A program made the translations under genes and the position numbers. Positions 17,401 through 33,039 of a stretch of DNA of 64,000 bases are shown piece after piece. Numbering within the stretch: position 1 is the first letter of the stretch; the number at the start of each line of letters is the position of its first letter. This DNA comes from Alphaproteobacteria bacterium. Lineage in GTDB: Bacteria; Pseudomonadota; Alphaproteobacteria; Sphingomonadales; Sphingomonadaceae. The stretch covers positions 6,092 through 70,091 of the forward strand of contig SBHJ01000262.1 of assembly GCA_006226465.1 (NCBI GenBank). The letters are read 5' to 3'. The notes beneath the pieces were generated by a model that was not told the DNA's origin, ran no database searches, and saw only the letters and a list, made by a program, of their open reading frames with translations.

Positions 17401-18197
17401 TGTCGAGTTCGGTCGGGTTTCAGCAGTCGGCCCGTAACGACACCAGCACGCGCTTCGAGGCTGGCAAGCAAGCCGGCCCCGACACGATCGAACATTTCCT
17501 GGGTGGCGGCGAGCAAGGCCGGGCGATGATGCAGAACTGGCTGCAGGGTGGGTTCGAGATGGATCGTCACGGCAACTGGCGCCTCAAACCCCAGGTGGCC
17601 GATACGCTCACGCGGGATGTGCAGTCGATCATTGGGCAAACCGGTTGGCAGCGGGGCCTGACACGATCCGCGCAGGATCAGGTGACGATGGGAACGAATG
17701 TCGGGCTTGAACTGGGTGGCGGCATTTCCAATTCGGAAACCGAAGCGGAAACGACTGGCGGTAGAGGCAAAGGGCCTCAAAAGGGGCAGAAAGGATCCCA
17801 GGGACCGACAGTTCAGCAGGCGCACACCACCAGCGGTCGTGTCGGTGCAAATGTCGGATTCACGAGCCGAGACGTCGGAATCTCGACCGAGAATGCGCAA
17901 TCGTCTTTGGATATCGTCAATCACGATGTTCGCAACGCTATAGCCGCAGCTGAGCGCGCCGCTGCTCGCTCCAGTCGTCCAGAAGAAGCCTTCTCTCGCG
18001 AATTGTCGGAACGGATTCTGGGGCCGACGGGTATGCGCAATCGCTATTTGCACGATGCGGATGCAGGCCGTGCTACCTTTGACATCACCGGCCCCTTCAC
18101 TTCAATCGAACAAAACTCCGTTTTGAAGAATGGCAGATTTTCGACTGATGTCGATGGGAGCCTCGGTGATGGCGATAGCAGCTTCAAAAAACGTTAA
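14409..18197 (+). CDS. traG: Conjugative transfer protein TraG (TraG_N membrane domain plus long C-terminal region)
   Basis: 1262 aa; multi-TM N-terminal half (V.DVP, YVRQC, FVALW), long Ala/Gly/Arg-rich C-terminus; follows traH. Confidence 0.92.
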   Translation: MNPILRALSVLIALFTMSFAATPALAIDTSFHTYDGFAETVDAFRLVSMIFGDPRYEMLVLIVAVVGIALGALLASVKGSGMGIVAFGFQMLIGVGLFVGLVATTGTVHVYDRVRNAYQPVGDVPNLIVLVAGMTNMMERALAEVIDDNTTDPHAKLEFGAGGHSFDLFLNAASPRGPMTDVFLDSTIKDYVRQCYPVARVSPAYGVDDDQLFRTTTDLPSAFAAMAGPATFSTVFTSADKGGTTVSCNEAWDHISTRLSEPALFDNYVAQVCTRTGYDITNTTQLQRCRANIGELGGMMMDNPASLQQFLTNVMLGGTIGDVLFEDSPATAARVMANRAVVSSGLATMSTANEWMPTIRATVFGIMLFMMPIALLFILTPINLRVASFALGLFVFVALWGVIDAGIYQLTLGRATDVLAEMRANNVAANAWMLAPSSAMKALAIFGSFRTAAAGLAGAFVFTVFRFSGNVFTAFTSGALGVQGQGTAAAAPLTTSEGYAGALEAQANAAGTMARRSATSSFGDFGERSNFGANRAFGAASRVIGEHGGGAAGTAAFGLGGLDAAREMGGLSPALTGRSLSDPATVRAVRDNATTAAIHNFAEKDALRALGTGYFGEGQSGERTFAAFAQRMVQWRAFGDQRAYEMMHSGAQRHFERGGYDAKDAALKASTVISQASADPTFAKLIANTYEQEQMLRNDLTGAQIQVGAMEGRRDFAGDNVAPIERRNVATEQAHRTGSNEGQRNAASMLGLPVQETSRRIAFINALSGEARSSAISQLSRATGRNEAQVLRALETYNAAVQVGTADGATAEAAREGTSVYGRTREAAGYDFAERSGKLDAQREVGHDGTRSAARIGEQRRQADNAGYAEGAAAAGMSVRQAARLDSFIRTLSQGVGNQTDMAEGGAAGIADRARNERLTRIVDNERLTRMQNLLRDHGVDMSKREIAMAQNGDLSLNLTPETAAQMWRGGLINESQLGAVANGGRARFSFADNDVLVSSSVGFQQSARNDTSTRFEAGKQAGPDTIEHFLGGGEQGRAMMQNWLQGGFEMDRHGNWRLKPQVADTLTRDVQSIIGQTGWQRGLTRSAQDQVTMGTNVGLELGGGISNSETEAETTGGRGKGPQKGQKGSQGPTVQQAHTTSGRVGANVGFTSRDVGISTENAQSSLDIVNHDVRNAIAAAERAAARSSRPEEAFSRELSERILGPTGMRNRYLHDADAGRATFDITGPFTSIEQNSVLKNGRFSTDVDGSLGDGDSSFKKR

Positions 18198-18648
18198 TGC
18201 GAGCCCCGTTGTTGGGACTTATCGGATTGCCGATGTAAAGCGCACCCGATCGTGGGTCGTGAATGTCAGTCGATGCATTGAGATCCTCAAATGCCCGGTC
18301 ATGCTCCTCCCAAAAATCGGCGATATTCGATGAAGCATCGTCAGAAAGGGAACCCCTAACCCCTGCGACTGAAGGTCTAGCTAGCAGATGCCGCACATAT
18401 CCCACGCCCAACACCATCAGCGCGGTCAGCGGGGAGAACAGGACATTCAGGAAACCCGCCAATGCGCTGTCGTAGAAAGCGGTCAGTAGCGTGACCTTCG
18501 TCGATACAGCCATGCCCGCCCACCATGCCGGGATTGCCGCCCACCAGAGCTTGGCGTACCACGGACGCCAGAGCCAATCGGACACATGCTTGCGCGATGC
18601 TCGTAAAGCATCGAGAGTTGCGAAAGTGTGATTAGAGTAATTATCCAC
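18184..18648 (-). CDS. Trp-rich membrane protein convergent with traG; entry-exclusion candidate
   Basis: GGAGG before GTG 18648, 154 aa, two hydrophobic segments, 14-bp 3' overlap with traG. Function inferred from position only. Confidence 0.6.
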   Translation of the reverse strand: MDNYSNHTFATLDALRASRKHVSDWLWRPWYAKLWWAAIPAWWAGMAVSTKVTLLTAFYDSALAGFLNVLFSPLTALMVLGVGYVRHLLARPSVAGVRGSLSDDASSNIADFWEEHDRAFEDLNASTDIHDPRSGALYIGNPISPNNGARINVF

Positions 18649-18704
18649 GACAGAAATCCTCCGTTGGAGGATATCACGCCTATCTGAACAAGAGAAGTTG
18701 AAAA

Positions 18705-18730
18705 TGCGATATTTCCGCAAAAATATCGCA
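18705..18730. promoter_or_regulatory. Perfect 10-bp inverted repeat TGCGATATTT-N6-AAATATCGCA
   Basis: Seen directly between the RES stop and the eex-candidate start; operator or terminator. Confidence 0.45.
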
Positions 18731-18760
18731 CACGTGTGCAACGTGCATACCGCACTCAAA

Positions 18761-19234
18761 CTACAGTCTATGGTCGTAGATCCATTTGCGTATCTTCGTG
18801 GCGGTTATACGCGTGGTATCCGGATGGGCTGGGTTGATGAGAACGTTCGGTTCCTCGGGGACGATCGTTGACGGGACAAAGAGAAGCGCTGTTCTCTGAC
18901 TGATCACCCACTCCGTGCCGTAAGCCGTACTCTCGATGCCTGCGGGGTGGGCGTCCCACCCAACTGGAGCAGTACGATGATCAAGACGCTCAGCCCCACC
19001 CCAGATGTCGTCGGGGACAACCACCTCCACCAAATACCGGTTGAGCGGAAGTTCGTCAGCGGCGAGGTGGACGACCGTTTCAAGGCAAGCCAGCGACCGG
19101 GTGCTGGCGGTATACACCACCGCGACACCTTCATCGTTCCAGCGTCCTCCACTGAGTTTTGCCCCAGTGCCTGAGAGATCGCTCGCAGAATAGCTTCGCG
19201 TATCCGTGCCAATCCGCCAAAGGGATTGGCTCAC
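18761..19234 (-). CDS. RES-domain toxin (NAD+-degrading, MbcT/ParT-like)
   Basis: LWRI, GGRWN, YTAS..SLACLE, VPS, NVLINPAHPD. GTG start overlaps the antitoxin TGA. Confidence 0.92.
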   Translation of the reverse strand: MSQSLWRIGTDTRSYSASDLSGTGAKLSGGRWNDEGVAVVYTASTRSLACLETVVHLAADELPLNRYLVEVVVPDDIWGGAERLDHRTAPVGWDAHPAGIESTAYGTEWVISQRTALLFVPSTIVPEEPNVLINPAHPDTTRITATKIRKWIYDHRL

Positions 19235-19713
19235 GCAAAAGCTCCGGTCTGCATCTGCTGAAGGAGCTTTGATACGAGCATCTGCCCTTTCATGGTGTCG
19301 AGATATTCCAGGGGCTTCGCACCGCCTAAGGCCGGAACAGGCCGTCGCAGCCAATTGGCGAGCCAGGTACGAGCGTCGAAACCTTCGGGATTGCCGGACT
19401 CCTCGACCATCGCTTCGACCTGCCCAAGCAACTCGGCCAAGCCGATGACGCGTTCACTTTCATCGGCACTGAGTACCTGATTTTTCGTCGCCTTCCGATT
19501 GATCGTCGCCGTCTTCAGACTCAGGGCATCGAGCATAACCTTCTGGTCGAGGTTGAATCCCCTGATGAGATATTTGGCCGTTCGTGCGGGCACCCCCTTC
19601 TTGATGAAGGCGATTTTTTCGGCCGCTCCGGCACGGAAGAGGTCAATTGGCACAAGATTCCCAGTGGGGGCTTCGACCTTCGTCGTGATGGCGGTTCCAG
19701 CGCGTGTCATCAT
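19231..19713 (-). CDS. Xre/MbcA/ParS-family antitoxin
   Basis: N-terminal HTH (IKKGVP...LSADESER) and C-terminal WLRRPVPALGGAKPLEYLDT; upstream of the RES toxin. Confidence 0.92.
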   Translation of the reverse strand: MMTRAGTAITTKVEAPTGNLVPIDLFRAGAAEKIAFIKKGVPARTAKYLIRGFNLDQKVMLDALSLKTATINRKATKNQVLSADESERVIGLAELLGQVEAMVEESGNPEGFDARTWLANWLRRPVPALGGAKPLEYLDTMKGQMLVSKLLQQMQTGAFA

Positions 19714-19731
19714 TTGCTCCTTTGAGCAAAT
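19712..19731. promoter_or_regulatory. Inverted repeat ATTTGCTC-N4-GAGCAAAT over the antitoxin RBS/start; probable autoregulatory operator
   Basis: Perfect 8-bp arms at the start of the Xre-RES operon. Confidence 0.55.
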
Positions 19732-19845
19732 AAATAGCTCATACTAGCAGCAACATCAAGGATGAGTGATATGGATGGGCTGGCCGGCAAACACGTTCAG
19801 CAAGTCCGGTTCTCTCCTGGCTTTCCTGCGACACTTGAAGCGGCG

Positions 19846-20072
19846 GCCCTCTTTGCGCCTATGAGCCTGCCTTGGCGCAAGGGCATTTTCCGAGCCTCTC
19901 CACCACAAGCCTCCCCTTCCCTCCTCGCACTACACTCACTGCCCAACCCCACCCCCCCCCCGCGCTGCGAACACTCAGTGCGGTATGCAACCTGCTCAAT
20001 CTGGCGCGTTCTAGCCGTTGCCTGACCTCGTTTGTCGCCACGATGAGGTTATTCGCCGTCGTTCATTTCGTT
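19846..20072. repeat. Degenerate direct repeat, copy A (~225 bp)
   Basis: Colinear blocks shared with 23517-23739: GCCCTCTTT..GCAAGG; 19911-19950 vs 23581-23620 (33/40 identical); CCGCGCTGCG..CACTC; 20041-20072 vs 23708-23739 (28/32). Confidence 0.8.
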
Positions 20073-20255
20073 ATTGTCGTCTCCGGGGTCGCCCCCCTCT
20101 CCCTAGAAAAATCCGCCCCGACTAGGCTGAGGCAACTTTCTGCTTGCCGTCTTATCGTCGCGCGCTCGCTGCTTCCTGTTCCGCCTCGACTGCACACCTT
20201 GCGTATCGGGGCATTGTGCCTTGCAAACATTCCTCCTGGGTGGGAAATTACGGCT

Positions 20256-20561
20256 ATGAGTGAGCTAGGTATCGTCGTTTATACACCCCATGACGGGTTT
20301 GTGGTCGTGCAGCACGATAGCGGCTTTGCAGTCGTTGAATTGCTGGACGATGAGACCGGCATCGGGTGCGGCGATACCCTCCATACTCGATCTTGGGAGA
20401 CACTTGGCACTGACACGCTCTATCGCGGCGATGTTGCTTACGAAGCCGGGTTTTGGAGCTCCTATGATCGGTTGCAGGACGCCCAGGAAAAGGCGCTGCG
20501 CTTCGTGTGCCATCTACTTGGGATCGCCATGACAACGACATCGGCAGAATTGGCGAACTGA
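20256..20561 (+). CDS. Hypothetical protein (~101 aa, beta-rich N-terminus)
   Basis: Protein-like sequence from ATG 20256; the upstream extension overlaps the repeat and looks non-coding. Confidence 0.55.
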   Translation: MSELGIVVYTPHDGFVVVQHDSGFAVVELLDDETGIGCGDTLHTRSWETLGTDTLYRGDVAYEAGFWSSYDRLQDAQEKALRFVCHLLGIAMTTTSAELAN

Positions 20562-20891
20562 ACGACGATCCTGGTGCGGAATTTTATGATCCGTCCGTTG
20601 CTTTCTGTTCGGCCGCGAACGCACGCTTGGTATCAGGCCGAGGGATGGATTTGTGTCTGGGGGACCGTGAGCGCCATCGCTCTCGGTGCGATCCTGCGGT
20701 GGTTCGGCATCGACAAGGGCGACTGTCCGGGAAATTTCCCGGACTTTGGCGGCGGCTAGGCGCGCGGGCCTGAGACAAGACGGACGTGCGTAGAGCCTAG
20801 CGTTGAGACCGGGACAGGCCTGTCTAGCCAAATTCTGATACGGCTAGCCGCAAGCGCCCCGGTGCGCTATATTGCCCGCAGGAGAATCGCC

Positions 20892-21155
20892 ATGTCCCGT
20901 ACCGAACATATCCAGCTCAATGTCCGCTCCGCGTTCGCGCGCGCCCGCGCGCAGGAACTAGCGCGCCTGACCGGTATGACCGCGACGCAGGTGGTCGAGG
21001 ACGCCCTGCGCGGTTATGTTCCGCCAGGCACGGCGGCGAAGGTCGGAAAGCTCGTCAAGCGCGGGCCGATCCTGGTGCGCCCGTCCGGCGGCGCCAGGGT
21101 CAGTCTCGAGGAGGCCAATGCCGCGCTTGAGGCCGCCCGGGAGCGTGACGATTGA
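20892..21155 (+). CDS. vapB: VapB-type antitoxin (Rv0623-like)
   Basis: QLNVRS...ARAQELARLTGMTATQVVEDALR; GGAG RBS; overlaps the PIN gene. Confidence 0.8.
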   Translation: MSRTEHIQLNVRSAFARARAQELARLTGMTATQVVEDALRGYVPPGTAAKVGKLVKRGPILVRPSGGARVSLEEANAALEAARERDD

Positions 21156-21616
21156 AGGCCGAGGCGCTGCTCGACAGCAATGTGATCATCGCAATGCTGG
21201 CCGAAGCCCATGAACACCACAAGCAGTCGCTCGCGCTGGTCGCGGGAGAACCGCGCCGCAGATTTGCTGTAGCGGCCCATAGCTATGCGGAAGCCTACAG
21301 CACGCTGACGCGCCGGGGCGAGCGGTCGCCGTTCCGGTTCGCCGCGGAGGAAGCCTGGGCGGCGCTCGAAAGCGTTCGCGCCGTCACGGATCTGGTCGGG
21401 CTGACACCCGCGCAATCCTTCGATGCTATCAGGGGCTTTGCACAAAGTGGCGGAGTTGGTGCGCGGCTTTACGACCTGCTGATCGGTGAGGCTGCGGTGG
21501 TCCATGATATTCCGGTCATTGTGACATGGAACGTCGGCCATATGCGCGATCTGTTCCCGGACCTGACGGTCGCGACCCCCAAGGAATTCGGGAGCAGCGC
21601 CGACACGAACCATTGA
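21152..21616 (+). CDS. vapC: PIN-domain VapC toxin
   Basis: LLDSNVII, AEAYSTLTR, YDLLIG, IVTWN acidic PIN motifs. Confidence 0.9.
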   Translation: MKAEALLDSNVIIAMLAEAHEHHKQSLALVAGEPRRRFAVAAHSYAEAYSTLTRRGERSPFRFAAEEAWAALESVRAVTDLVGLTPAQSFDAIRGFAQSGGVGARLYDLLIGEAAVVHDIPVIVTWNVGHMRDLFPDLTVATPKEFGSSADTNH

Positions 21617-21671
21617 GGATAGCACAGCTATTATCAACGCTTGGGCATGCGTCTATTCAACGTGAGGCAGA

Positions 21672-21971
21672 GTGATGACGACCAATCAAATTACTGTGCA
21701 TGCTAACGAAAAAGATGTGCGCGAGGTGCTTGCATCCGTACTCGCTCCCGAAGAATTGTCCATGTTCGACATCAAGGAACAGGAACAACCGCAGGATCCG
21801 TTCGAAGCCGATCAGCGCGGCGAAACGATCTCATTCATGACGATCCTTGTCTGGCTTTCTCAAGCCGCCGCCAGCGGCATGGCCTACGACATCATGCGCA
21901 AGGCATCCAGCGCTCTCGTGGAACGGTTCGGAAAGGATCGTGTCGTTGTCAGACCGCCTTCTGAAGACTGA
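21672..21971 (+). CDS. Small protein with a C-terminal hydrophobic/amphipathic hairpin
   Basis: 99 aa; acidic linker then RG-ETISFMTILVWLSQAAASGMAYDIMRK; overlaps the next gene. Confidence 0.7.
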   Translation: MMTTNQITVHANEKDVREVLASVLAPEELSMFDIKEQEQPQDPFEADQRGETISFMTILVWLSQAAASGMAYDIMRKASSALVERFGKDRVVVRPPSED

Positions 21972-23502
21972 TCCCTTCGAACCCGGTTCCCGGCATGAGG
22001 AGGTTCAAGGCGCTCGCTTTTGGCCGGATACTCTGTTCGTCGACCTGTCAGCCTATCCCGACGAGGTGCAAAGCTACGATCATCGCGAGCTGACATTTTG
22101 GGACGATTGCGATCTGGGTATTCTGGTCGCCATGGCGGCCAGGATGCACGAGCAGCTGCATTGGTTGCAAACAATCGGCACAACGTTCGGCCGGTTTCTG
22201 GCGACCAATCGTGTCACGACCGGGGATCTCGCGGACGCAATATTGACCACCGCCACTCCCCGAGAGCTGGACATGCTCATCGACGCAAGGCGGCGCTCGA
22301 TCCCACCTGCCTTGCGTGATAGCACCGGCAGGCTCTCCCACGAGATGGGGTACTCCCCAACGTTACAATCCTTGTTTGATCACTGGTGGTCGACTGTTGC
22401 CCTAGAGCATTATCTGGTGGATTCTGGGGCCGAACTGCTCGGTCCTATCGATCCCCGCTTTATGGTTGGTTTGAGCCTTCGTTATGCGGTTGCCGGCAAT
22501 AGACCGATCGATGTCTTCAATGCCCCGGATGAAGGGTTCATGGAGACGACCCGAGCCTTTGGCCCGCGTGATTCAAGCCCGGCCTTCAGGACCACTTCGG
22601 GATTGACCGTCCGCAATATCGAGGAAACCGCGGCCCTCGTGCTGCAACTCATCACAAAGGCGAGCCTGGCGGAAATGCTTAGCGATGAGCGGCAGGCCAA
22701 ATATGCCGAGCAGACCTCGCTGTGGTCACTCGAGCGCTTCCTTGATGATCGACAGTCTCTCTACACCAAAGCACTGATGTTCTACGCGAAGCAGGCGTCC
22801 CTATCCGATCCCCATCGCTTTTTCGAACTACTGCTGTTGCTATGCGACATTGCCCTCAATCCGAGAATTCCGGACGATGGCTCGCCTCTGGGCGCGGAAT
22901 GGAACGATTTCCATCCTGTATGCCGTTTCGAGCGACTCGTCGCTGCGCTGGAGGGGTTCACGCCTGATGTTCGCAAGATCGATGGGCGTCCTCCGCTGAA
23001 ATGGTGGGAGGAAGAACGCTATCGGCTCGTCGAACGTGCGGGTATCAGCGATGGTGCTAAAGATCGCGCTTTCTGCTCCATCCCCCAAACCGCGCAAGAT
23101 GCCCTGGAGGCACCCTCAGACCACATTCGCGCTTTCCTGGCCAAAGCTGGAGTGAACCTTGGCATCCTTCGGGATCACTATCCGTCTGTCGTGGCGAGCC
23201 CGATTCACACCCTGCTGCACGACACGGAAGGCATGGTTGCTCTTACCGACACGTTCGAGGGACCGAACTTCGATCCGCCGCTCAACATCCGCAGCTTTGG
23301 GGATGGGGAACCTTCACCATCAATCGACACACGGACCTATGTGCATACACTTGTCGCGTTGACATCGCGTCGGGCAACGCACTCTTGGCTTGTTCGGGCC
23401 GGACCATTGAATTTTCTTGGCTTGCCGACCGATACAATTGGCTTGAGGGCGCAACAGGTAGCCATTGAGCGATTGTCAGGTCTATATGATATCGAGGCCT
23501 GA
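21946..23502 (+). CDS. Putative HExxH zinc metallopeptidase-like protein
   Basis: Long ORF (open from 21847; AAGGA before TTG 21946), MHEQLHWLQ motif and a later IEE candidate third ligand. Start uncertain. Confidence 0.7.
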   Translation: MSDRLLKTDPFEPGSRHEEVQGARFWPDTLFVDLSAYPDEVQSYDHRELTFWDDCDLGILVAMAARMHEQLHWLQTIGTTFGRFLATNRVTTGDLADAILTTATPRELDMLIDARRRSIPPALRDSTGRLSHEMGYSPTLQSLFDHWWSTVALEHYLVDSGAELLGPIDPRFMVGLSLRYAVAGNRPIDVFNAPDEGFMETTRAFGPRDSSPAFRTTSGLTVRNIEETAALVLQLITKASLAEMLSDERQAKYAEQTSLWSLERFLDDRQSLYTKALMFYAKQASLSDPHRFFELLLLLCDIALNPRIPDDGSPLGAEWNDFHPVCRFERLVAALEGFTPDVRKIDGRPPLKWWEEERYRLVERAGISDGAKDRAFCSIPQTAQDALEAPSDHIRAFLAKAGVNLGILRDHYPSVVASPIHTLLHDTEGMVALTDTFEGPNFDPPLNIRSFGDGEPSPSIDTRTYVHTLVALTSRRATHSWLVRAGPLNFLGLPTDTIGLRAQQVAIERLSGLYDIEA

Positions 23503-23516
23503 CAGGACCTAGCCCC

Positions 23517-23739
23517 GCCCTCTTTCTCCACGGAAGATGGCTTCGAGCAAGGAAATTTATCAGGTCTATCGAGCTTAACCCTCCCCCTCCTACCTCGCAC
23601 TACCCTCGCCGCTCAACCCCGACCCTCCGCGCTGCGGTCACTCGATGATTGAATTTACCCGGTTATTGTCTCGTGGGTCGTGGCGTTTCTCATCTCGTTT
23701 CAGATCGCGATGAGATCATTCTCCGTCGTTCACTTCGTT
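23517..23739. repeat. Degenerate direct repeat, copy B (overlaps luxR 3' end)
   Basis: See copy A. The last block encodes the LuxR C-terminus NEVNDGE* on the minus strand. Confidence 0.8.
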
Positions 23740-24531
23740 CAATATTTGCCCGTCCAATAAGGCTCGGGCGACGAGAGCCGAACGTTTGTAAACGCCGTAA
23801 CGCTGCATAGCGACCGATATGAAGTATTTGACCGTTGCTCCACCAAGGCCGAGGATCTTTCCGATTTCCCAATCAGTTTTGCCGAGTGCGACCAGTGTCG
23901 TGCATTCAGCCTCTCGTCGCGTGAGCTTAGGCCCGGCGACCCGCCGCTTGGGTTGATAAAGGCGTAGAGCCATATTGAACCCATAAGAAGCGATGACATG
24001 CAACGCGGCCAATAGGTCGGGTGTCGCCTCGACAACCCGCGAAGCCGCAAAGGTACAGGAGGCGCGTGGTTCTCCCGGAATGTGCAAGGGGATCGTCACA
24101 CCATGCGAAATGCCATGTAAACGCGCTGCGCCGAACAACGCCAGCTGGGGTTCACGAAGCGGAACAAGTCCAGGTATTTCGTCCCACGTAAAGGGACGGT
24201 CCAACAATTCGCTGACCTCATAAACGGGGTCGAGCACATAGTGATGATTCTCGATATAGGATTTTATGAATTCTGTCGGGTAGTTCGTCACCACCAGCGC
24301 GTGCTCGGCCAAACGGGGTAAACTGCCATGCTGGACCAGGGCGACGTGGTCGAAGCCCATTTCTCTAGCAGCGTGGGCCAGGCCTTCGCATAGCGTATCG
24401 AAGGAAGTCGCTTTCAGAAGCTGAGAGAGAACGTCGCGCAGGTGAGGTCCAAGAAACACAGGATTCCTCCTTGCTGGAACGAGACTCCGCAATCCTGTCG
24501 GTAGCGTCGACCTGGCGACGGCATGGCCCAC
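23716..24531 (-). CDS. LuxR-family regulator (autoinducer-binding domain plus HTH); no luxI in window
   Basis: NYP..F...Y......LDPV, PFTW, HGISHGVTIPLH, LTRREAEC..LVALGKTDWEIG. Start uncertain. Confidence 0.9.
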   Translation of the reverse strand: MGHAVARSTLPTGLRSLVPARRNPVFLGPHLRDVLSQLLKATSFDTLCEGLAHAAREMGFDHVALVQHGSLPRLAEHALVVTNYPTEFIKSYIENHHYVLDPVYEVSELLDRPFTWDEIPGLVPLREPQLALFGAARLHGISHGVTIPLHIPGEPRASCTFAASRVVEATPDLLAALHVIASYGFNMALRLYQPKRRVAGPKLTRREAECTTLVALGKTDWEIGKILGLGGATVKYFISVAMQRYGVYKRSALVARALLDGQILNEVNDGE

Positions 24532-25054
24532 TCACGGTCAACGCCATCGTGCGTTCTAGGAGTGGACGCGAAGCACGCAGCGGCATGGGCGTGCCTGCGG
24601 GCAGGATGGGAGTCACATTTTTGCAATCAAACGATGTCATCATATATCGTTAGACACTTTGAGCCGGTGATTCTGGCAATGACCGGGCAATTTTTTTGCT
24701 GACGATCTCATCCGTTCTTGCGGATTCGTTCGGCTCGAACCCGATAGTCACAGCAGCTTTCACGGAAAATCACGGTGCTTGAACGGAAGAGCGATCGCTC
24801 TTGCCGGGCTTTTTGTTCCCAAAATCGGCATTGATGCGGATACCGATCAGGATGGCGACTACCTAGGCTTCGAGGCCGATCCAGGTTCCAACATCAGGCC
24901 GACAGCGACAGCGTCGATGCATCGTGCCGCAACGTCCTGAGGCGCTGCACCACTCAAGAATCATCAGCGGCGCAAAACTGCGGAAAGCCGTAATTACTGG
25001 CTGCAAGTCTGCGGGATAGGCGTTTCAGGCAGTGTTGCCGAAGGAACAGCATCC

Positions 25055-26059
25055 ATGTCCGATTGCCCCCCCTTCCCAAGCTTGGCCTATTCCGCAGGCC
25101 CAGAGAGGCTTGTGGCGATGGGACGAAGCGTCATTGCAACGGAAGCGGAAGCACTCTGGGCATTGGGAAACGAGCTCGATCTATCCTTTGGCCATGCCAT
25201 CGCGACGCTCCAGCAGACAAAGGGGCGCATCTGTGTCTGCGGCCTGGGCAAATCCGGGCATATTGCGCGAAAGATCGCCTCGACGCTTTCCGCCACCGGC
25301 TCCCCGGCTCTGTTTCTTCATGCAAGCGAGGCCGTCCATGGCGATATCGGCACATTGCACGAATCCGATACACTTCTCATCCTTTCCAATTCGGGCAGCA
25401 CCCGCGAACTGGGCACGATCCTTCTTCGGGCAGATCATATGAATATTCCGATTGTCGCGATCACCTCGGCGCGAGGTTCGCGGCTGGCTGATGCGGCCGA
25501 GACCTGCCTGTTTCTTCCTAACCGTCCCGAGGCATGTCCCCACAACAGTTCTCCGTCAACATCGACAGCGATGATGCTCGCCTTGGGGGATGCTCTCGCG
25601 ATCACCTTGATGCGAGTGAAAGGAATTACGGCTGAGACGTTGCATTTCTTCCACCCCGGCGGACGCCTGGGTCTGGATCTCGTGACGATCGAGAGTTTCA
25701 TGCACAGGGGAGAGGAATTGCCACTCGTTCCACTTGGCGCTTCAATGGAGACTGTCGTCGCCACAATGAGCGAAGGTGGCTTTGGCATCGCCGCGGTTGT
25801 CGATGACCAAGGCTCGCTTGAGGGCGTGATCACCGATGGCGACCTCAGGCGGCACGCGCATTCATTTCGCGACGGGCTGGCGAGTGAAATAATGACGCGC
25901 AAACCGCATGTTCTTTGTGGGGATATGCTCGCTCGCGATGCCCTGGAAATGCTCTCTCGAGCGCGCATCACGTCATTGCTCGTGGTGAATAGCGAATACG
26001 ATCGCCGGGTCGTTGGCCTCGTTCACATCCACGATCTGCTCCGTCTCGAGATCGGTTGA
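25055..26059 (+). CDS. kpsF: Arabinose-5-phosphate isomerase KpsF/KdsD (SIS plus CBS)
   Basis: GLGKSGHIARKIASTLSATGSPA, EAVHGDIG, HPGGRLG, ITDGDLRR. Confidence 0.95.
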   Translation: MSDCPPFPSLAYSAGPERLVAMGRSVIATEAEALWALGNELDLSFGHAIATLQQTKGRICVCGLGKSGHIARKIASTLSATGSPALFLHASEAVHGDIGTLHESDTLLILSNSGSTRELGTILLRADHMNIPIVAITSARGSRLADAAETCLFLPNRPEACPHNSSPSTSTAMMLALGDALAITLMRVKGITAETLHFFHPGGRLGLDLVTIESFMHRGEELPLVPLGASMETVVATMSEGGFGIAAVVDDQGSLEGVITDGDLRRHAHSFRDGLASEIMTRKPHVLCGDMLARDALEMLSRARITSLLVVNSEYDRRVVGLVHIHDLLRLEIG

Positions 26060-26060
26060 T

Positions 26061-26849
26061 ATGCGCATTACGATCGTCATTCCGGCGCGATACGAATCCA
26101 CCCGATTTCCTGGAAAGCCGTTCGCTCGGCTCAGGGGAGCCGGCGGGTCTGAGAGGTCGCTGCTGGCTCGTACCGTAGATGCGGCCATGGCTGTGGGCCC
26201 TTCGATCGATGTTGTGGTGGCAACCGACGATGCACGGATTGCCGACGCCGCGCGTGCTGCCGGAGCGCGCTCAACCATTACGTCGAGCTTGTGCTTGAAT
26301 GGAACCGAGCGTTGCGCTGCGGCGATTGAAGATGGCGCTGTTGATGCGGACGTCATTATCAATTTGCAGGGAGACGCCCCGCTCACGCCATCAAGCGCTA
26401 TCTCTGCGTTGATCTCCGAGATCAGCACTGACCCCGCCGTACTGGTCGCCACTGCAATGACACGGTGTGGTCCCGACACGGTTGCGAGGCTGCGCGTGGA
26501 TGAGGCGGCTGGCCGTATTGGGGGCACCACTGTCGTAGCGGACGGGGCTGGCGATGCCCTATATTTCTCGAAACGAATACTGCCTTATGGCGGAGGCAGC
26601 GCGGATTGCCCGATTTTCCTCCATCTAGGCCTTTACGCTTATCGACGCCGTGCCCTGTTGCACTATGCGGCCCTTCCCCCCGCCCCGCTCGAAGCCGCCG
26701 AGGGACTGGAGCAACTGCGTTTTCTGGATGAACGCATTCCGGTGCGTATGGTGGAAATCAGCGAGCCTCCCGGTGGTCTCTGGGAGGTAAACAACCCGGG
26801 CGACATTCCCATTGTTGAGCAAGCACTCGAATTGCGGGGTATCGCGTGA
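26061..26849 (+). CDS. kdsB: CMP-Kdo synthetase KdsB/KpsU
   Basis: IPARYESTRFPGKP, VATDD, GTER, NLQGD, LYFSK, LEQLRFL. Confidence 0.95.
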   Translation: MRITIVIPARYESTRFPGKPFARLRGAGGSERSLLARTVDAAMAVGPSIDVVVATDDARIADAARAAGARSTITSSLCLNGTERCAAAIEDGAVDADVIINLQGDAPLTPSSAISALISEISTDPAVLVATAMTRCGPDTVARLRVDEAAGRIGGTTVVADGAGDALYFSKRILPYGGGSADCPIFLHLGLYAYRRRALLHYAALPPAPLEAAEGLEQLRFLDERIPVRMVEISEPPGGLWEVNNPGDIPIVEQALELRGIA

Positions 26850-26871
26850 TGGGATTGGGTGGAGGTCGGCT

Positions 26872-27726
26872 ATGATCGTTCGCGATACCGCGATTGGTCA
26901 GGACAAACCCCTGTTTCTGATCGCTGGCCCCTGCGTGTTGGAGTCGCTGGAACTGTCACTGCGCGTCGCGGATTACTTATCGCAAATCGCGCACAGGCAT
27001 CATATCCTGGTTGTTTTCAAGGGTTCGTTCGACAAAGCCAATCGAACGTCACTTACATCCTATCGAGGTCCCGGACTTCACGACGGGTTGGAAATTCTTC
27101 GTGCAGTTTCCGAGAAGACCGGATTGCCTGTTTTGACGGATGTTCACGAGCCCGATCAGGTCATGACGGTTGCCGAGGTAGCCGATGTCCTACAAACGCC
27201 CGCCCTTCTCGCACGCCAGAGCGACTTGATCGTCGCAGCCGCCCGATCAGGCCGAACCGTCAATATCAAGAAGGGGCAGTTCATGGCGCCGTGGGATATG
27301 ACGCAGGTGCTTGAAAAAGCGCGATCTGCGGCGGTAGCGGCCGGCAATGACCCAAATTCGTTCTTCCTTTGCGAACGGGGGACGAGCTTTGGCTACAATA
27401 ATCTGGTCACCGACCTTCGTAGCCTTTCAGTAATGGCTGAAACAGGAGCTCCGGTTGTTTTCGACGCAAGCCACAGCGTGCAAGAACCCGGGAGCCTTGG
27501 AAACTGTTCGGGAGGCGATCGTCGTCATATCCCGTTGTTGTGTCGTGGAGCAGTTGCTGCGGGAATTGCAGGACTGTTCATCGAGACACACCCCGATCCG
27601 TCCAGAGCGCTTTCCGACGGTCCCAACTCATGGCCGCTCGATCTTCTCGATCCGTTGATAGAGCAGCTCGTTGGGCTCGATCGCTCCATCAAAGCCAGTC
27701 TGGCTGCCTATCCGTCGGCGCAGTGA
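26872..27726 (+). CDS. kdsA: Kdo-8-phosphate synthase KdsA
   Basis: IAGPCVLE, SFDKANRTS, NIKKGQF, CERG, FDASHSVQ, ETHPDP..ALSDG. Confidence 0.96.
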   Translation: MIVRDTAIGQDKPLFLIAGPCVLESLELSLRVADYLSQIAHRHHILVVFKGSFDKANRTSLTSYRGPGLHDGLEILRAVSEKTGLPVLTDVHEPDQVMTVAEVADVLQTPALLARQSDLIVAAARSGRTVNIKKGQFMAPWDMTQVLEKARSAAVAAGNDPNSFFLCERGTSFGYNNLVTDLRSLSVMAETGAPVVFDASHSVQEPGSLGNCSGGDRRHIPLLCRGAVAAGIAGLFIETHPDPSRALSDGPNSWPLDLLDPLIEQLVGLDRSIKASLAAYPSAQ

Positions 27727-27801
27727 AAGGGTGGAATGCTCTATGCTGCGGCAGAATTTGATTGAAAACCGGTATCCCTCCGACATGGCAGCGGACAGAT
27801 A

Positions 27802-28872
27802 ATGGAAATAGTTCCTGTCATTCTATCGGGCGGCGCCGGGACACGCCTCTGGCCGCTGTCGACAAGCCAGACTCCGAAGCAGTTCCTTCCCCTGCTGGGT
27901 TCGCATAGCTTGTTGCAGCAGACCATAATTCGCATGCGTCGCGCAGATATCGTCAATGATCCGATCCTGGTCACGAACGTCATCCATGGCGATCAGCTTG
28001 ATGATCAGCTGAAGGAAGTAGGTTGCGCGCCTTTCCGGCTTATACGCGAGCCGGCAGGGCGCAACACGGCCCCAGCTATCGCATTGGCGGCGCTTGAGGC
28101 GCCGACGTCGGAGACTTTGCTGCTGGTGCTGCCAAGTGACCATGTCATCAAGGATGCAACTGCCTTTGGCGAGGCGATACGACAAGCCGTACCGCATGCC
28201 GAGAAAGGGTGGCTGGTCACATTCGGGGTTCGACCGGAGTATCCGGAGACTGGATATGGCTACATCCGCGCTGGAGCGGACATCTCCGCCGGCGTGCAAG
28301 AGGTCGAGGCTTTTGTCGAAAAGCCGGATGCCGTCGATGCCGCGATAATGATCGCCGAAGGGGGGCATTTCTGGAATGCTGGCATTTTTCTGTTTCGGGC
28401 TGATGCGCTGCTTGGAGCGATGCGCACACATGCGTCCGACATTCTGGAAGCGACCGTGAAGGCGCGCGCCCTGGGACATCGCCATGGCTTTATAGTAGAA
28501 CCTGAGCCAATCGCCTTTTCCGACGTCCCTGCGAAATCGATCGACTATGCTGTGATGGAAAAAGCCGCCAAGGTAGCGGTTGTCCCAGTCAGCATGGGTT
28601 GGTCGGATCTCGGTAGCTGGGACATGGTTCATGCCGTTGGTGAACGCGATGCGGCGGAGAATGTGGTCGATGGCGATGTAACCGCGATCGACAGCCGTAA
28701 TTGTCTATTAAGGACCACCGGCACCCGTATCGCAACAATTGGGGTGTCCGACCTCATTGTCATCGTCACCGCAGATGCGGTGTTGATCGCTCCTCGCGGA
28801 CAATCGCAGGACGTACGTCGGCTTGCCGAGCAGGCGGGAACCACGCCCAAAGCCGTCGAGAACGACCGGTAA
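27802..28872 (+). CDS. manC: Mannose-1-phosphate guanylyltransferase (no C-terminal PMI domain)
   Basis: ILSGGAGTRLWPLS, PKQF, EPAGRNTAPA, PETGYGYI, SIDYAVMEK, WSDLGSW. Confidence 0.95.
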   Translation: MEIVPVILSGGAGTRLWPLSTSQTPKQFLPLLGSHSLLQQTIIRMRRADIVNDPILVTNVIHGDQLDDQLKEVGCAPFRLIREPAGRNTAPAIALAALEAPTSETLLLVLPSDHVIKDATAFGEAIRQAVPHAEKGWLVTFGVRPEYPETGYGYIRAGADISAGVQEVEAFVEKPDAVDAAIMIAEGGHFWNAGIFLFRADALLGAMRTHASDILEATVKARALGHRHGFIVEPEPIAFSDVPAKSIDYAVMEKAAKVAVVPVSMGWSDLGSWDMVHAVGERDAAENVVDGDVTAIDSRNCLLRTTGTRIATIGVSDLIVIVTADAVLIAPRGQSQDVRRLAEQAGTTPKAVENDR

Positions 28873-28904
28873 ACCCGTTGCATGATCAGTGGGAGCCAAG
28901 ACCG

Positions 28905-29723
28905 ATGCTGAGGGAAATGTGTGTCGAGAGCGGCGAGATCAGAGCTGCCTCGATCGCGAGGCGCGGCTCGGCCGAATTGCTGACTCCACGCTATGTTCCC
29001 AAACCCTGGGGACGTAGAACCTCTTCACACGGTATGTCCGATGACGCATGGCCTCTGGGAGAAATTGTCCACGAGGCGCCTGATCTCGGCCTCACGATCA
29101 AATGGCTGCAAACGAGCGAGCCACTGTCCGTGCAGGTGCATCCGCAAGGCAAGGATGGCAAGGACGAGTGGTGGTATGTCGTCGAGGCTCAGGACGGGGC
29201 CTATATTGATATTGGTCTGAAGGCGCCGGCGACGCGCTCCAAGCTTTTCGAGGCGGCTCATGACGGAAGCTTGCCGTCGCTGCTCAATCGCATCGCCCCG
29301 AAACCCGGCGACTCATATTTTATTCGGGCCGGCACGATTCACGCGCTTGGCCCGGGGCTGATCGTCTTGGAAGTGCAGGAAGCAAGCGACGTTACCTATC
29401 GCCTGTTCGATTACGGACGTGATCGCGAACTACATCTCAACCAGGGTCTGTTCGAGGCAAGAACTGGTGGGGCGGTCGAGTGTCTGCCATCCGACGATAG
29501 CTCGTTCACCGTTTCACAAATCGATATCGAAAGCGATGCCCGTATCGTTATGGCCCCTGAACGGGCATGTTTGGTCGTGCTGTCCGGCGAAGGGGAGATT
29601 GACGGCCAATCGTTCGCTGCAAATCAATGCTGGTGCACGCATGGTCCGATAACGCTTTGCGCCAAGAAGCGGACTCACCTAGTTGTGGTGGAATCTAGAG
29701 TGACAATCGAAAATAAGGGTTGA
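28905..29723 (+). CDS. manA: Class I mannose-6-phosphate isomerase
   Basis: PKPWG, LSVQVHP, GKDEWWYV, AGTIHA, EVQEASDVTYRLFDYGR. Start uncertain. Confidence 0.9.
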   Translation: MLREMCVESGEIRAASIARRGSAELLTPRYVPKPWGRRTSSHGMSDDAWPLGEIVHEAPDLGLTIKWLQTSEPLSVQVHPQGKDGKDEWWYVVEAQDGAYIDIGLKAPATRSKLFEAAHDGSLPSLLNRIAPKPGDSYFIRAGTIHALGPGLIVLEVQEASDVTYRLFDYGRDRELHLNQGLFEARTGGAVECLPSDDSSFTVSQIDIESDARIVMAPERACLVVLSGEGEIDGQSFAANQCWCTHGPITLCAKKRTHLVVVESRVTIENKG

Positions 29724-29972
29724 GCTAATGCAATTGACGCTTACGTTCAGCGCCTAAATGGGAATGTCTGATCACTTCTATTCCCACCCATAGTTGCGTT
29801 CGTACACGCGCAAAAGAGCGTTGCACACTATCCCGTGTGGCCCTAGCTGTTTAGCAAGTGCTTCGGGGCCGGCGTTTTCAGCATCCAGTTTCAACAGGGC
29901 GTTAGTTCTTGGAACTAGAATTGGGAAAACATCTTCACCTCTCAACCTAGCGGTAGTTCTGACGTGCTTCGC

Positions 29973-30830
29973 TTAAGGCCTCGTGGCTAACACGTAGACC
30001 ATTTTGTCTCCGATTGCCTCCACCAACTCTTCGGGACCGCATGGCGGCAACAGGCCGGTCGGGGGCAACATCTGCAAATGGAAATCGTGCCCAGAGAGTT
30101 GATTGAGAAGTGCGGTTGGTGAGATTGAGCGCGAGATAGACGGCGCATAATATTCAAAAATTATCGTTTGAAGACGACGGTCGGACAGGATGCGATGGGC
30201 GCCTTCGAATACGAGGGGTTCCGATCCTTCAACATCAACCTTCAGCACATTTGGAGAAGTCTGCAAAGAGAGCAGGCTGTCCAGCGAAGCACATCCAACG
30301 GTGATTTTATTATGGGTTTCAGAAGAGTCCGGCCCAGCTTCCAGAATCGTTCCGCCACCGCTGAATTTGTTGTCATATGTGAGCGTGGCCTGCTCCATCC
30401 CACCTGATACGGCCAATGGTGACAGTTCCACGATCTCATGCAGTCCGTTCACGAGGACCGAGCGGTTCAGCAGGTCAAAAAGGCGTGGATTGCATTCGAA
30501 CGCGAAAACCCTCCCTCTGGCTCCGACTGCGCTGGCCCCTATCAAGGTATAGTAACCGAAGTTCGCGCCTATATCGCAGAATGTCATTCCAGGCTTTAAC
30601 GCTTTTACCAGGACACGCTCGACCCAAGGCTCCCAGCGCCCGTCCATCATCAAATGAGAAGCGATGCCTATATCGCGGGTATCTACGTATATTTTATGGC
30701 CTGTATGCAAACGCGTGAGCGCGATATAGTCGCCCAGGTAGGCCGTTGATTGTGACCAGGCAGAATGTCGGCGACGGCTCCGCTGGATGCCAGCTACTGC
30801 GGATCTGAAAGTGCGTAGCCACTGGCTCAT
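29973..30830 (-). CDS. FkbM-family SAM methyltransferase
   Basis: DIGANFGYY, VFAFECNP, LKVDVEGSE. Confidence 0.9.
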   Translation of the reverse strand: MSQWLRTFRSAVAGIQRSRRRHSAWSQSTAYLGDYIALTRLHTGHKIYVDTRDIGIASHLMMDGRWEPWVERVLVKALKPGMTFCDIGANFGYYTLIGASAVGARGRVFAFECNPRLFDLLNRSVLVNGLHEIVELSPLAVSGGMEQATLTYDNKFSGGGTILEAGPDSSETHNKITVGCASLDSLLSLQTSPNVLKVDVEGSEPLVFEGAHRILSDRRLQTIIFEYYAPSISRSISPTALLNQLSGHDFHLQMLPPTGLLPPCGPEELVEAIGDKMVYVLATRP

Positions 30831-30909
30831 AGGTAAGCGAAGCCCTCAGGGCTGGCAATTACCAGCGCAGATCTAATGGATGAAAATCCCCACTGGCTAC
30901 AAAGGCCCA

Positions 30910-31350
30910 CTAGTGAGCAAGCCATGCGACCGCAGCTCCTAGAGGGATCGTCCACCAGGTCCAGATAAACCCTTGGAAAAGACCTTTCTGCATAGGTCCA
31001 AAGCGGAGATTGGGATCTATTTTCCCCGGTTTTTCCGACACTCGACGCAACGGGGGGATTAACCAGATAACAGTGTTCAGCATTATTCCGCCCATCGCCA
31101 TGAAAGGAATGATGCTCGGGAACACCAGCAGCACCCAGAATTCTTTGATCGGCCCTCTTAAGACGATACGCGCCTCCTCAGGGTGGGAGAGTTGATTATG
31201 CCAATTAAGCAAAGCGACGAGATAGTAAAATTCTAGAACCAATCCTATCGCGCCCATTGTAAGCCCGCAGATCATCCCCCACCAACCGCGCAATGCTGCA
31301 CGCTTTTGTGCAACCGCAACATAGGGCGCATGGCGTTTCCGGCTTGTCAT
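30910..31350 (-). CDS. Hypothetical membrane protein (about three TM)
   Basis: 146 aa with hydrophobic segments; co-oriented downstream of ompH. Confidence 0.6.
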   Translation of the reverse strand: MTSRKRHAPYVAVAQKRAALRGWWGMICGLTMGAIGLVLEFYYLVALLNWHNQLSHPEEARIVLRGPIKEFWVLLVFPSIIPFMAMGGIMLNTVIWLIPPLRRVSEKPGKIDPNLRFGPMQKGLFQGFIWTWWTIPLGAAVAWLAH

Positions 31351-31415
31351 GGCCTTACGTTCCCCTGCCCTTTGTCACGGCCGAGTAGCTGTGCCGACGC
31401 AAGGATGGGCACATT

Positions 31416-31997
31416 TTATGGTTGCTGCTCCGGCAGTCGCTCGCGCTCGAACGTGATCGTCTGAATCTTGGCGTCGAGCCCTTTGAGGACATCCGCAGTC
31501 AAATCGTTGGCGAAATTACCGCCAAGCGTCACGCTCCGGTCGAGGAGAAGTCCGCATTTCTTGTTCGTATACGCCTGGGAGATTACGGGCTGCACCTCAG
31601 TCAAAATCCGCTCCATGGCCTTGGCACGGGTTGCTTCAATTTCACGACTGTTGTGAGCAGCCTTGCGCTGAAGCGCCGTCCAACGGGTGGCAAGTGCGTC
31701 GCGCTTCTGTTTGGTCTGCGCGTTGTCTGGCTGGCCTTCCAGCGATTTGACCTCTGTTTCCAAAGGCGTTCGTTGCTGGTCGATTTCCGACTGCGCTGTC
31801 CTCGCCAGTTCGGCAAGGCGTGTGGTGGCTGCCTTCGCGACAGCTGCGTTCGCAAAAATCGCTTCCCGCGACAACAGGCAAACACCTGGGATTACCGGCC
31901 CGCCAAGTCCTGGCGCCGGCGAAGCCGTCTGTGCTGCGAGTGATACGGGAGCCGCACCAGCAGCAAGAATGGCGAGAAAAATGGAAAAGCGTGACAT
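31416..31997 (-). CDS. OmpH/Skp-family periplasmic chaperone
   Basis: Signal peptide, long coiled coil, CGLLLDRS...DLTADVLKGLD C-terminus. Confidence 0.82.
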   Translation of the reverse strand: MSRFSIFLAILAAGAAPVSLAAQTASPAPGLGGPVIPGVCLLSREAIFANAAVAKAATTRLAELARTAQSEIDQQRTPLETEVKSLEGQPDNAQTKQKRDALATRWTALQRKAAHNSREIEATRAKAMERILTEVQPVISQAYTNKKCGLLLDRSVTLGGNFANDLTADVLKGLDAKIQTITFERERLPEQQP

Positions 31998-31999
31998 TA

Positions 32000-32785
32000 T
32001 CAGTCCTTCTCATGCAATGGAGGTTCATCGCCAACAGTCGGCGGAACCGCCTCTTTTGGTTCTGTAAACCTGCGCGACAACAGCTCTGGAAACAGGTCGA
32101 TCGAGTTTAGGTGCTGCGTGATAAGTCCCAGCCACCCGCGGGGATGCCACTCCGCCACTGTTGGTCCGTCGAGGGCCATAAAACGCTCAGGGTCGACAAC
32201 TTTGAAGCCGTCGCGCGCAATATTGCGTCCATCGGGCAGAGCGTATTCGATACGCCGCTCGACGAGCAGATCACGACCTTCGAGCGCTCGCATGAAAGCG
32301 ATGGTGGCTTCGGCTTCACCGCGAAAAGCCTCGCAGAAGGCCAGTGCGCGCTCCGTGACCATCGTGGGACGGCCATGCTCGAATAGAGGCTGACCGTCTT
32401 CTTCGCCGAGGCCGTCACATTCAGAGTCGATGCAGAGAATGTAGCGATCGCTGTCTTCGATACGAAGGAACCCGAATGGATATCGCCGGGCGTAGGCCGG
32501 TATGTAAATCCCTTTCGCCCAGTCCCCTGCTTCGAGGAATACATTGCGTCCTTCGATGCCCAGGATTGCGTGCGGGGTAGAATCGGAGCTGGCGAAAACT
32601 ATGGGATAGTGCCGCGAGGCTCGAGCAAATTCGCTCACCACGATGGGAATCGACGATGTTTCGGCGGTGAAGGAATAGTCGCATTCTTTGAGTCGCAGCG
32701 TCGAATGGAGAGCCGCGTCAAGCGGCCGCAGAGACCGGTAGAACAGCGGCAGGGTTGGCGGGGTACTCGTTTCGGATACGGCCAT
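32000..32785 (-). CDS. sapC: SapC-family protein
   Basis: PLDAALH, SEFARASRHYPIVF, YIPAYARRYPF, LFEHG.PT, GFKVVD, HLNS. Confidence 0.88.
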   Translation of the reverse strand: MAVSETSTPPTLPLFYRSLRPLDAALHSTLRLKECDYSFTAETSSIPIVVSEFARASRHYPIVFASSDSTPHAILGIEGRNVFLEAGDWAKGIYIPAYARRYPFGFLRIEDSDRYILCIDSECDGLGEEDGQPLFEHGRPTMVTERALAFCEAFRGEAEATIAFMRALEGRDLLVERRIEYALPDGRNIARDGFKVVDPERFMALDGPTVAEWHPRGWLGLITQHLNSIDLFPELLSRRFTEPKEAVPPTVGDEPPLHEKD

Positions 32786-33039
32786 GGCTGGTCTCTCGAT
32801 TCGCTCTGCGCAGGCAGCGAAAATTCACTGCCCGTTGGTCCCGTTTCTATTGCCTCGATCAATCGCTAACGATTACGGATTCCCGCAATTTTATCGGCGA
32901 CGCATTTTGGCGACACTCTGCCCTGCACATATGGACGTGCGCATCAAACAGGGTGGGCGGAGCAATTCTGGGCAGTGAGAGCATTGCGGGTTTCGGACGA
33001 TACCGAAGATGGCGCGGCCCTGGGTTGGGTTGTCGGCCA

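Follow-up and report, generated by a model that had tools for sequence, protein, structure and literature searches.

Introduction

Death effectors that are licensed by a protease are described more and more often in bacterial immunity. Among the closest described systems are those built on EACC1, which in the passages of Kaur et al. (2020, PMC7159879) drawn on here is defined by one hydrophobic segment with a patch of small residues, and for which a caspase or a cNMP cyclase is named as partner. In the available text of Evans et al. (2025, 10.1101/2025.11.14.688446), EACC1 is a caspase-activated pore-former: the caspase cuts it near Asp49, only the C-terminal fragment is toxic, the N-terminal part being inhibitory, and cleaved EACC1 makes liposomes leak. 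The modules surveyed in that text use trypsin-like, subtilisin-like, caspase-like or CRISPR-associated proteases, stress roles are raised there for some EACC1 modules, and the EACC1 proteases known so far carry fused sensor domains that vary (same excerpts of 10.1101/2025.11.14.688446 and PMC7159879). An enzyme is also laid out beside a small protein in zincin-like peptide-processing pairs (excerpts of PMC7159879), and protealysin-emfourin is a documented metalloprotease-inhibitor operon (excerpts of PMC9505478).

Here we describe a two-gene locus found in the window, that is, in the whole stretch of 64,000 nucleotides that was analysed. With moderate confidence, we propose that it is a gluzincin-gated, EACC1-like death module, in which the peptidase would cut the linker of its small partner and the freed C-terminal half would damage the membrane of its own cell, likely as a suicide defence. 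What is new here is that, at the level of sequence, the N terminus of the predicted peptidase repeats the linker motif of its partner, DPFxxxxRxE.

The gene pair and its surroundings

Open reading frames, alignments and models together delimit a small gene (21675..21971, plus strand), encoding an EACC1-like 98-aa protein that is predicted to be a latent membrane effector, and a large gene (21940..23502, plus strand), encoding a predicted cytoplasmic gluzincin-type metallopeptidase of 520 aa from an unnamed family. The two genes overlap by 32 nt; an earlier sequence-only reading had described two overlapping genes, and both frames were found on the plus strand where it had placed them. The 99 aa that it gave for the small protein hold for the frame opened by GTG 21672, and the recorded form, present on 47 contigs, is the 98-aa one that starts at ATG 21675. 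The longest frame of the large gene starts at TTG 21847 and encodes 551 aa; homologues align from about GTG 21940, which gives 520 aa, as in the recorded form. Near-identical proteins are recorded from Sphingobium sp. CFD-2, and positions 18000-25000 lie in a single contig in three of four public DNA runs, in which the two genes carry no listed variant; the source sample may be among these runs. The two genes are both under purifying selection, with dN/dS of 0.32 for the small and 0.09 for the large one, as calculated from L003 versus L004, the sole unsaturated pair of loci. The RNA libraries gave only short, scattered contigs at the locus, which do not show transcription, and no sigma-70 promoter or terminator at the locus scored above shuffled sequences.

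The pair belongs to a cargo block bounded by two diverged direct repeats, a left copy at 19868..20072 and a right copy at 23538..23739 (both plus strand; 68% identity over 209 nt, E 7e-10), which are the only two copies in the 68%-complete source genome, have no Rfam match and are context, outside the conserved system. The repeats are about 200 nt long with a C-rich first half, and in one public run contigs break within the right copy. Upstream of the block, traF, traH and traG end at 18197, and a RES toxin and Xre/MbcA antitoxin pair (18761-19713, minus strand) lies between traG and the block. Immediately upstream of the pair, a vapB-like (Rv0623-like) gene and a PIN gene make up a vapBC-type pair (20892..21616, plus strand; Pfam PF07704 and PF01850), also context only. 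The earlier picture of a pair directly behind vapBC, in a repeat-bounded cassette next to a tra region, is therefore accurate. Downstream there is a LuxR-type regulator gene (23716-24531, minus strand), which adjoins a Kdo/capsule-export cluster with an FkbM methyltransferase (25055-34572).

Just 3' of traG, a stretch at about 18400-18580 has matches in many unrelated contigs from three of four metagenome runs, with loose ends on both sides; it may be an element that recurs in the conjugative regions of sphingomonads. Two open reading frames near the cassette, of 82 aa (20265-20513, minus strand) and 191 aa (18184-18759, minus strand), have no Pfam or PADLOC match.

Conservation and neighbours of the pair

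The small gene was found directly 5' of the peptidase gene in 8 of 8 core-family loci, of which seven are distinct, down to about 25% identity. These comprise L001-L006, where L005 repeats L003, together with L008 and L009, two loci on plasmids with 23-26% identity; L007, a 19-residue match, stands outside the count, and gene context covers a minority of the 44 aligned peptidases. In a quick tree, the loci with a partner fall in three subclades of one 29-row clade (SH-aLRT 97). At the family level, a profile of the small protein matched 2 of 381 genomes; these two are also the ones, out of 401, with the full-length peptidase, and one of them (G117) is the genome of L001. The top small-protein match adjoins the peptidase in five of five records tested. 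The co-conservation that the sequence-only reading had made its pair depend on is thus observed. The pair was absent from 100 sampled congeners, the full-length peptidase from 400 class-level genomes and any relative from the viral contigs scanned; plasmid searches with P0063, P0046 and P0068 gave no matches. Copies of the pair occur on conjugative plasmids. We conclude that this is a conserved, mobile pair with a patchy spread.

Two of these loci show damage to the frames. L009 (7665-9815), on an Aminobacter plasmid, has neither gene intact: the small one is frameshifted just after the motif described below, and the peptidase runs into an apparent transposase fragment, presumably of Tn3 type. 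In L006 (435-2070), a metagenome contig, the coding sequence of the peptidase falls into two frames, and a near-identical full-length protein, P0011, is recorded, so the split may be an assembly error.

No match to the partner lies near any of three remote relatives of the peptidase: L040, L041 and L042, the last of them broken. L040 aligns with the peptidase family with an hhalign probability of 97.8 at 16% identity; L040 (2132-4440, G1291) and L042 (2527-3409, G092) form a remote peptidase subfamily of HETIHWWQH type. The L040 peptidase gene overlaps an upstream gene for a 208-aa protein that has no Pfam or PADLOC match and whose GWGSL motif is reminiscent of gamma-glutamylcyclotransferase-like proteins; this couple is possibly a different two-gene system. 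L041 (2936-4231, minus strand, G1415) is a solo remote relative with a C-terminal cysteine cluster; it lies in a mobile region, beside genes for ArdC and a Toprim protein.

The link to vapBC that the earlier reading implied does not extend beyond the window, given that tblastn found no vapBC beside the pair in any of the seven other loci. By raw count, defence-like genes are neighbours in five of these seven: PDC-S06 in L001, PDC-S67 and a NucS-like gene in L003, an Mrr-type nuclease in L004, AbiEii in L008, and a restriction endonuclease with an ATPase/endonuclease pair in L009. No defence neighbour was seen in L002 or in L006, the latter on a short contig. In L002, LuxR/LuxI genes lie nearby, with LuxR directly 3' of the peptidase, next to a cluster that we take to be lasso-peptide-like. 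LuxR, vapBC and the other neighbours are not conserved across loci, and no tailoring or export genes are conserved near the pair. As the earlier reading had expected, the pair matches no catalogued defence system: PADLOC v2.0.0 (2023) gave no model match for the window proteins, 13 peptidase homologues or 4 partner homologues.

The large protein is a predicted zinc metallopeptidase

A word-based search retrieved 22 relatives of the large protein (38-97% identity) and a full phmmer scan 46 matches, of which 8 fragments were left out; the window protein, the remaining 38 and 5 near relatives make up a 44-row alignment with a mean column identity of 23%. In spite of this divergence, H70, E71, H74, G84, E229, P326, R329 and F330 are invariant in 44 of 44 rows. 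The HEQLH noted earlier near the N terminus lies at residues 70-74 (HExxH at 22147..22161, plus strand), and the IEE then singled out as a candidate third ligand lies at 227-229; both picks are upheld by the invariance of HExxH and Glu229. Glu229 (22624..22626, plus strand) is the predicted third zinc ligand and forms an ExxA pattern with A232, which is retained in 42 of 44. In an AlphaFold2 model (pLDDT 86, pTM 0.90) assigned by DSSP, HExxH falls in helix 59-80 and E229 in helix 224-245. The protein has no obvious signal peptide by eye, and its length is near-constant across the family, with no recognised sensor domain.

None of the 44 peptidases matches any Pfam family at E up to 0.01, and neither window protein has a convincing match in Pfam, NCBIfam or PADLOC, the sole NCBIfam row (E 0.1) being far under the cut-off. 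An exhaustive structural search with the model gave weak matches (Z 3.0-4.4, rmsd 4-5 A); metallopeptidases (DPP III, thermolysin, LasB, M1 and M32), identified by title in all but two cases, account for 11 of the best 50 rows, interleaved with unrelated helical, GPCR-like bundles. They match mostly over model residues 23-345, beyond which the protein has about 175 further C-terminal residues. The comparison with thermolysin-like folds is weak (Z 3.1-4.3, rmsd 4.0-5.2, 133-168 residues aligned) and for thermolysin starts at model residue 23 and thermolysin residue 111, about which the substrate-binding edge strand presumably lies. The family carries A-x-(Y/F)-W at 25-28, a predicted strand. 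For the zincin fold supposed earlier, these weak gluzincin-like matches are what was gained; Foldseek returned nothing at E <= 0.001 in PDB or BFVD, a further Foldseek look gave mostly GPCR-like bundles, and a profile search of PDB sequences gave no match. Taken together, the HExxH and Glu motif, the weak thermolysin alignment and the edge strand argue that the large protein is a gluzincin by motif and, on the model, probably by fold; by sequence it belongs to no named peptidase family. Among the weak genome matches, L014 was discarded as spurious, and L013 and L015 look to us like ArdC-type peptidases.

The small protein

A single-sequence search with the small protein found 2 relatives and a 7-row profile 14; 13 of these 14, the window protein and that of L006, which nearly duplicates P0070, form a 15-row alignment. 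V15, L23, F43, E50, W60, D72, F85, G86 and V90 are invariant in it, and P42, R48 and G49 are each at least 90% conserved. The layout is an acidic N-terminal beta-alpha-alpha-beta part, a linker, a glycine-rich hydrophobic segment (52-70), an amphipathic helix (68-85) and a last strand (90-93). All 16 proteins have an acidic N-terminal half. The hydrophobic 19-mer after the loop scores 1.25-2.07 in 16 proteins and at least 1.6 in 11 of them, that of the window protein being moderately hydrophobic (1.41); it is rich in Gly and Ala, with a patch of small residues. The AlphaFold2 model (pLDDT 76) has a ferredoxin-like fold, with a strand, two helices, a strand, a low-confidence loop, strand 54-60, a glycine-rich loop, helix 68-85 and strand 90-93. 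The sequence-only reading had seen a hydrophobic hairpin in the second half of the protein, an expectation that gives way here to a strand, loop, helix and strand rather than a preformed helical hairpin.

The best structural matches of the small protein are generic ferredoxin-like folds (Z up to 7.9); Foldseek gave no match at E <= 0.001, and a profile search of PDB sequences gave two chance matches. No EACC1 or Pepco structure came up in the fold lists, an absence that excludes nothing. In the ESM Atlas, two unnamed clusters came first and a cluster of which 19% carry EACC1 came third (score 0.92, 180 shared features), which is a lead only. The Pfam EACC1 profile (PF19953) matched 0 of 15 small proteins at E up to 1 and nothing in the source genome, in a search without a positive-control match. 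The earlier analogy with EACC1 thus keeps the Atlas lead, the topology and the hydrophobic segment, and loses family membership by Pfam.

A motif shared by the two proteins

The linker of the small protein contains DPFEADQRGE (residues 41-50; 21795..21824, plus strand), a predicted docking or cleavage loop, and residues 11-20 of the peptidase read DPFEPGSRHE (21970..21999, plus strand). Of 15 partners, 12 carry the strict pattern (D/N)PFx4RxE, and so do 17 of 21 near peptidases, the latter always at residues 7-16. In 18 of the 21 near peptidases, a matrix built from the partners alone scores best somewhere in residues 1-25 (11.4-26.3 bits; maximum on shuffled sequences 13.7, n=1050), and two of the three that it missed start downstream of the motif. 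The rows are kin, so that these counts do not come from independent sequences. In distant peptidases the best match falls in the first 25 residues in 11 of 36, mostly at chance-level scores, and the three remote relatives without a partner also lack the motif; the motif is therefore strong only in the near clade and fades in distant clades. Co-variation of the motif between cognate pairs looked plausible by eye and was set aside, given that a score matrix does not favour cognate over non-cognate pairs.

In seven of eight loci (the window, L001-L004, L006 and L009) the TGA of the small gene overlaps the Asp codon of the peptidase DPF motif (21969-21972 in the window). This Asp is therefore partly fixed by the overlapping stop codon; the Pro, Phe, Arg and Glu of the motif lie outside the gene overlap. 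The overlap may reflect descent or translational coupling, and it is constant despite a varying tail length of the small protein. In the peptidase, only a few residues separate the end of the motif copy from the edge strand (25-28) that likely binds the substrate, and Arg18 of the copy forms an isolated beta-bridge in the model. This position, beside the predicted substrate-binding strand, suggests that the N-terminal motif copy could be a built-in pseudo-substrate.

Proposed mechanism and alternatives

Given an EACC1-like layout, size and loop position combined with a different protease class, we infer cleavage in loop 41-52 and a membrane-active C-terminal half. At rest, the acidic N-terminal half would cover the hydrophobic strand in a closed four-stranded alpha/beta partner, as in the predicted fold, and the motif copy of the peptidase would sit in the enzyme's own cleft or in its docking pocket. 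This copy would be displaced by a trigger, for which the helical remainder of the peptidase is the probable sensor, since no separate sensor domain was found; the matching loop of the partner (41-50) could then dock and be cut, and the C-terminal fragment of about 50 residues would oligomerise in the membrane, as reported for EACC1. The likely target is phage or other invaders, through suicide of the infected cell. A cut after RG, as first suggested, may be only one candidate bond; with a thermolysin-like P1' preference, which we assume, a cut before the invariant Phe43 would be equally possible. More tentatively, we offer a fuller version, in which the EACC1-like pore-former is licensed by a zinc enzyme from an unnamed metallopeptidase family, and this enzyme is gated by the copy of the substrate loop at its own N terminus; sensor, lock and protease would then reside in one sensor-less polypeptide.

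The shared motif is also what would be expected of a small protein that mimics the pro-segment of an enzyme. The pair could accordingly be a toxic peptidase with a dedicated inhibitor, following a toxin-antitoxin or immunity logic like that of protealysin-emfourin: the peptidase would cut host proteins, the small protein would plug its cleft with the mimicking loop, and loss or titration of the inhibitor would unleash toxicity. Many toxin-antitoxin operons have the small gene first and overlapping, as here, and two other toxin-antitoxin pairs lie within 3 kb. A metalloprotease-inhibitor operon is on record (excerpts of PMC9505478), and remote peptidase relatives exist without this partner. We nevertheless consider this explanation unlikely, though it is the strongest of the alternatives, because it leaves unexplained the conserved glycine-rich hydrophobic segment, the invariant Trp60, the amphipathic helix and the EACC1-like features, and because the peptidase, having no Pfam match, is not an M4 enzyme by that test.

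Cleavage could also take place for another purpose than defence, such as stress-triggered death, addiction of the mobile element or the liberation of a regulatory peptide that acts on membranes. In line with this, no sensor fusion is seen, the pairs of the window and L002 sit beside LuxR-type genes in the cargo of conjugative elements rather than in classical defence clusters, and stress roles are raised for some EACC1 modules in the text of Evans et al. (10.1101/2025.11.14.688446) available to us. We regard these purposes as rather improbable, given that LuxR, vapBC and the other neighbours are not conserved and that five of seven loci have defence-like neighbours. Peptide-modification systems with HExxH enzymes exist. 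That the HExxH protein is a metal-dependent modifying enzyme rather than a hydrolase, with the small protein as its precursor substrate, is very improbable: the layout is common to zincin-like peptide-processing pairs (excerpts of PMC7159879) and the peptidase fold match is weak, but the third conserved ligand is a Glu in an ExxA helix, as in gluzincins, the partner is a predicted folded, conserved domain and not a variable leader-core peptide, and no conserved tailoring or export genes lie nearby.

If the gluzincin-gated death module is real, it extends the logic of protease-licensed death to metallopeptidases, a new catalytic class for gasdermin-like death, and brings with it a family of peptidases not described before. 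The shared motif singles out the loop that would be cut, and from it follows the prediction that an enzyme lacking its first 20 residues is switched on, whatever its trigger. If the small protein is instead an inhibitor, the pair represents a new protease-inhibitor type of toxin-antitoxin system.

Comparison with known systems

In Pepco (Trypco1/2) and bacterial gasdermin modules, as proposed here, a latent pore-former is licensed by a neighbouring protease; unlike Pepco/Trypco, the present pair has no Pfam match and no serine or cysteine protease partner. With the gluzincins (thermolysin M4, DPP III M49, M32 carboxypeptidases and M1 aminopeptidases), the large protein shares an HExxH helix, a downstream Glu helix, where the likeness of the third ligand comes from sequence and secondary structure and not from coordinates, and a short strand before the active-site helix, besides the weak structural matches over residues 23-345. 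It differs from them in having no Pfam (0/44) or PDB sequence match, about 175 extra C-terminal residues and no obvious signal peptide. In protealysin-emfourin, too, a metalloprotease gene goes with a small one, and the small protein could bind to the active site (excerpts of PMC9505478), but the peptidase described here does not score as M4 (0/44 in Pfam) and its partner has a conserved hydrophobic, glycine-rich segment. The system of the Tiamat preprint was considered and dismissed as unrelated, its metalloprotease-like fold being inactive.

A true EACC1 for comparison was sought in 301 phylum genomes, with none over the cut-off, in plasmids (0/3 and 0/4, in searches without a positive-control match) and in two supplements of PMC7159879, which contained none; one Embleya caspase had no small gene evident upstream. 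The literature searched, which comprised few subscription papers, the available text of Evans et al., and passages of PMC8195603, 10.64898/2026.10.19.760177 and 10.64898/2026.09.30.754977, yielded no metallopeptidase-coupled EACC1-like module.

The likeness to EACC1, judged from published descriptions of that protein, begins with gene order, since as in the EACC1-caspase modules of the excerpts cited a small 5' gene encoding about 100 aa precedes a peptidase gene (in the window and in 8 of 8 core loci). It extends to a single hydrophobic segment, with its patch of small residues, that lies between alpha/beta parts, to a candidate cut near residue 49 and, in the model, to a predicted N-terminal part that would share a sheet with two C-terminal strands as in the EACC1 monomer, a match of element order only. 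Unlike EACC1, the small protein has no PF19953 score; its partner is an HExxH/Glu metallopeptidase and not the caspase or cNMP cyclase of those excerpts, no variable C-terminal sensor fusion of the kind described in them is seen in the family, the peptidase copies the loop of its partner, and the pair was found in Alphaproteobacteria. By the tests run, therefore, the pair is not a member of the EACC1 systems, and it probably works like an EACC1 module.
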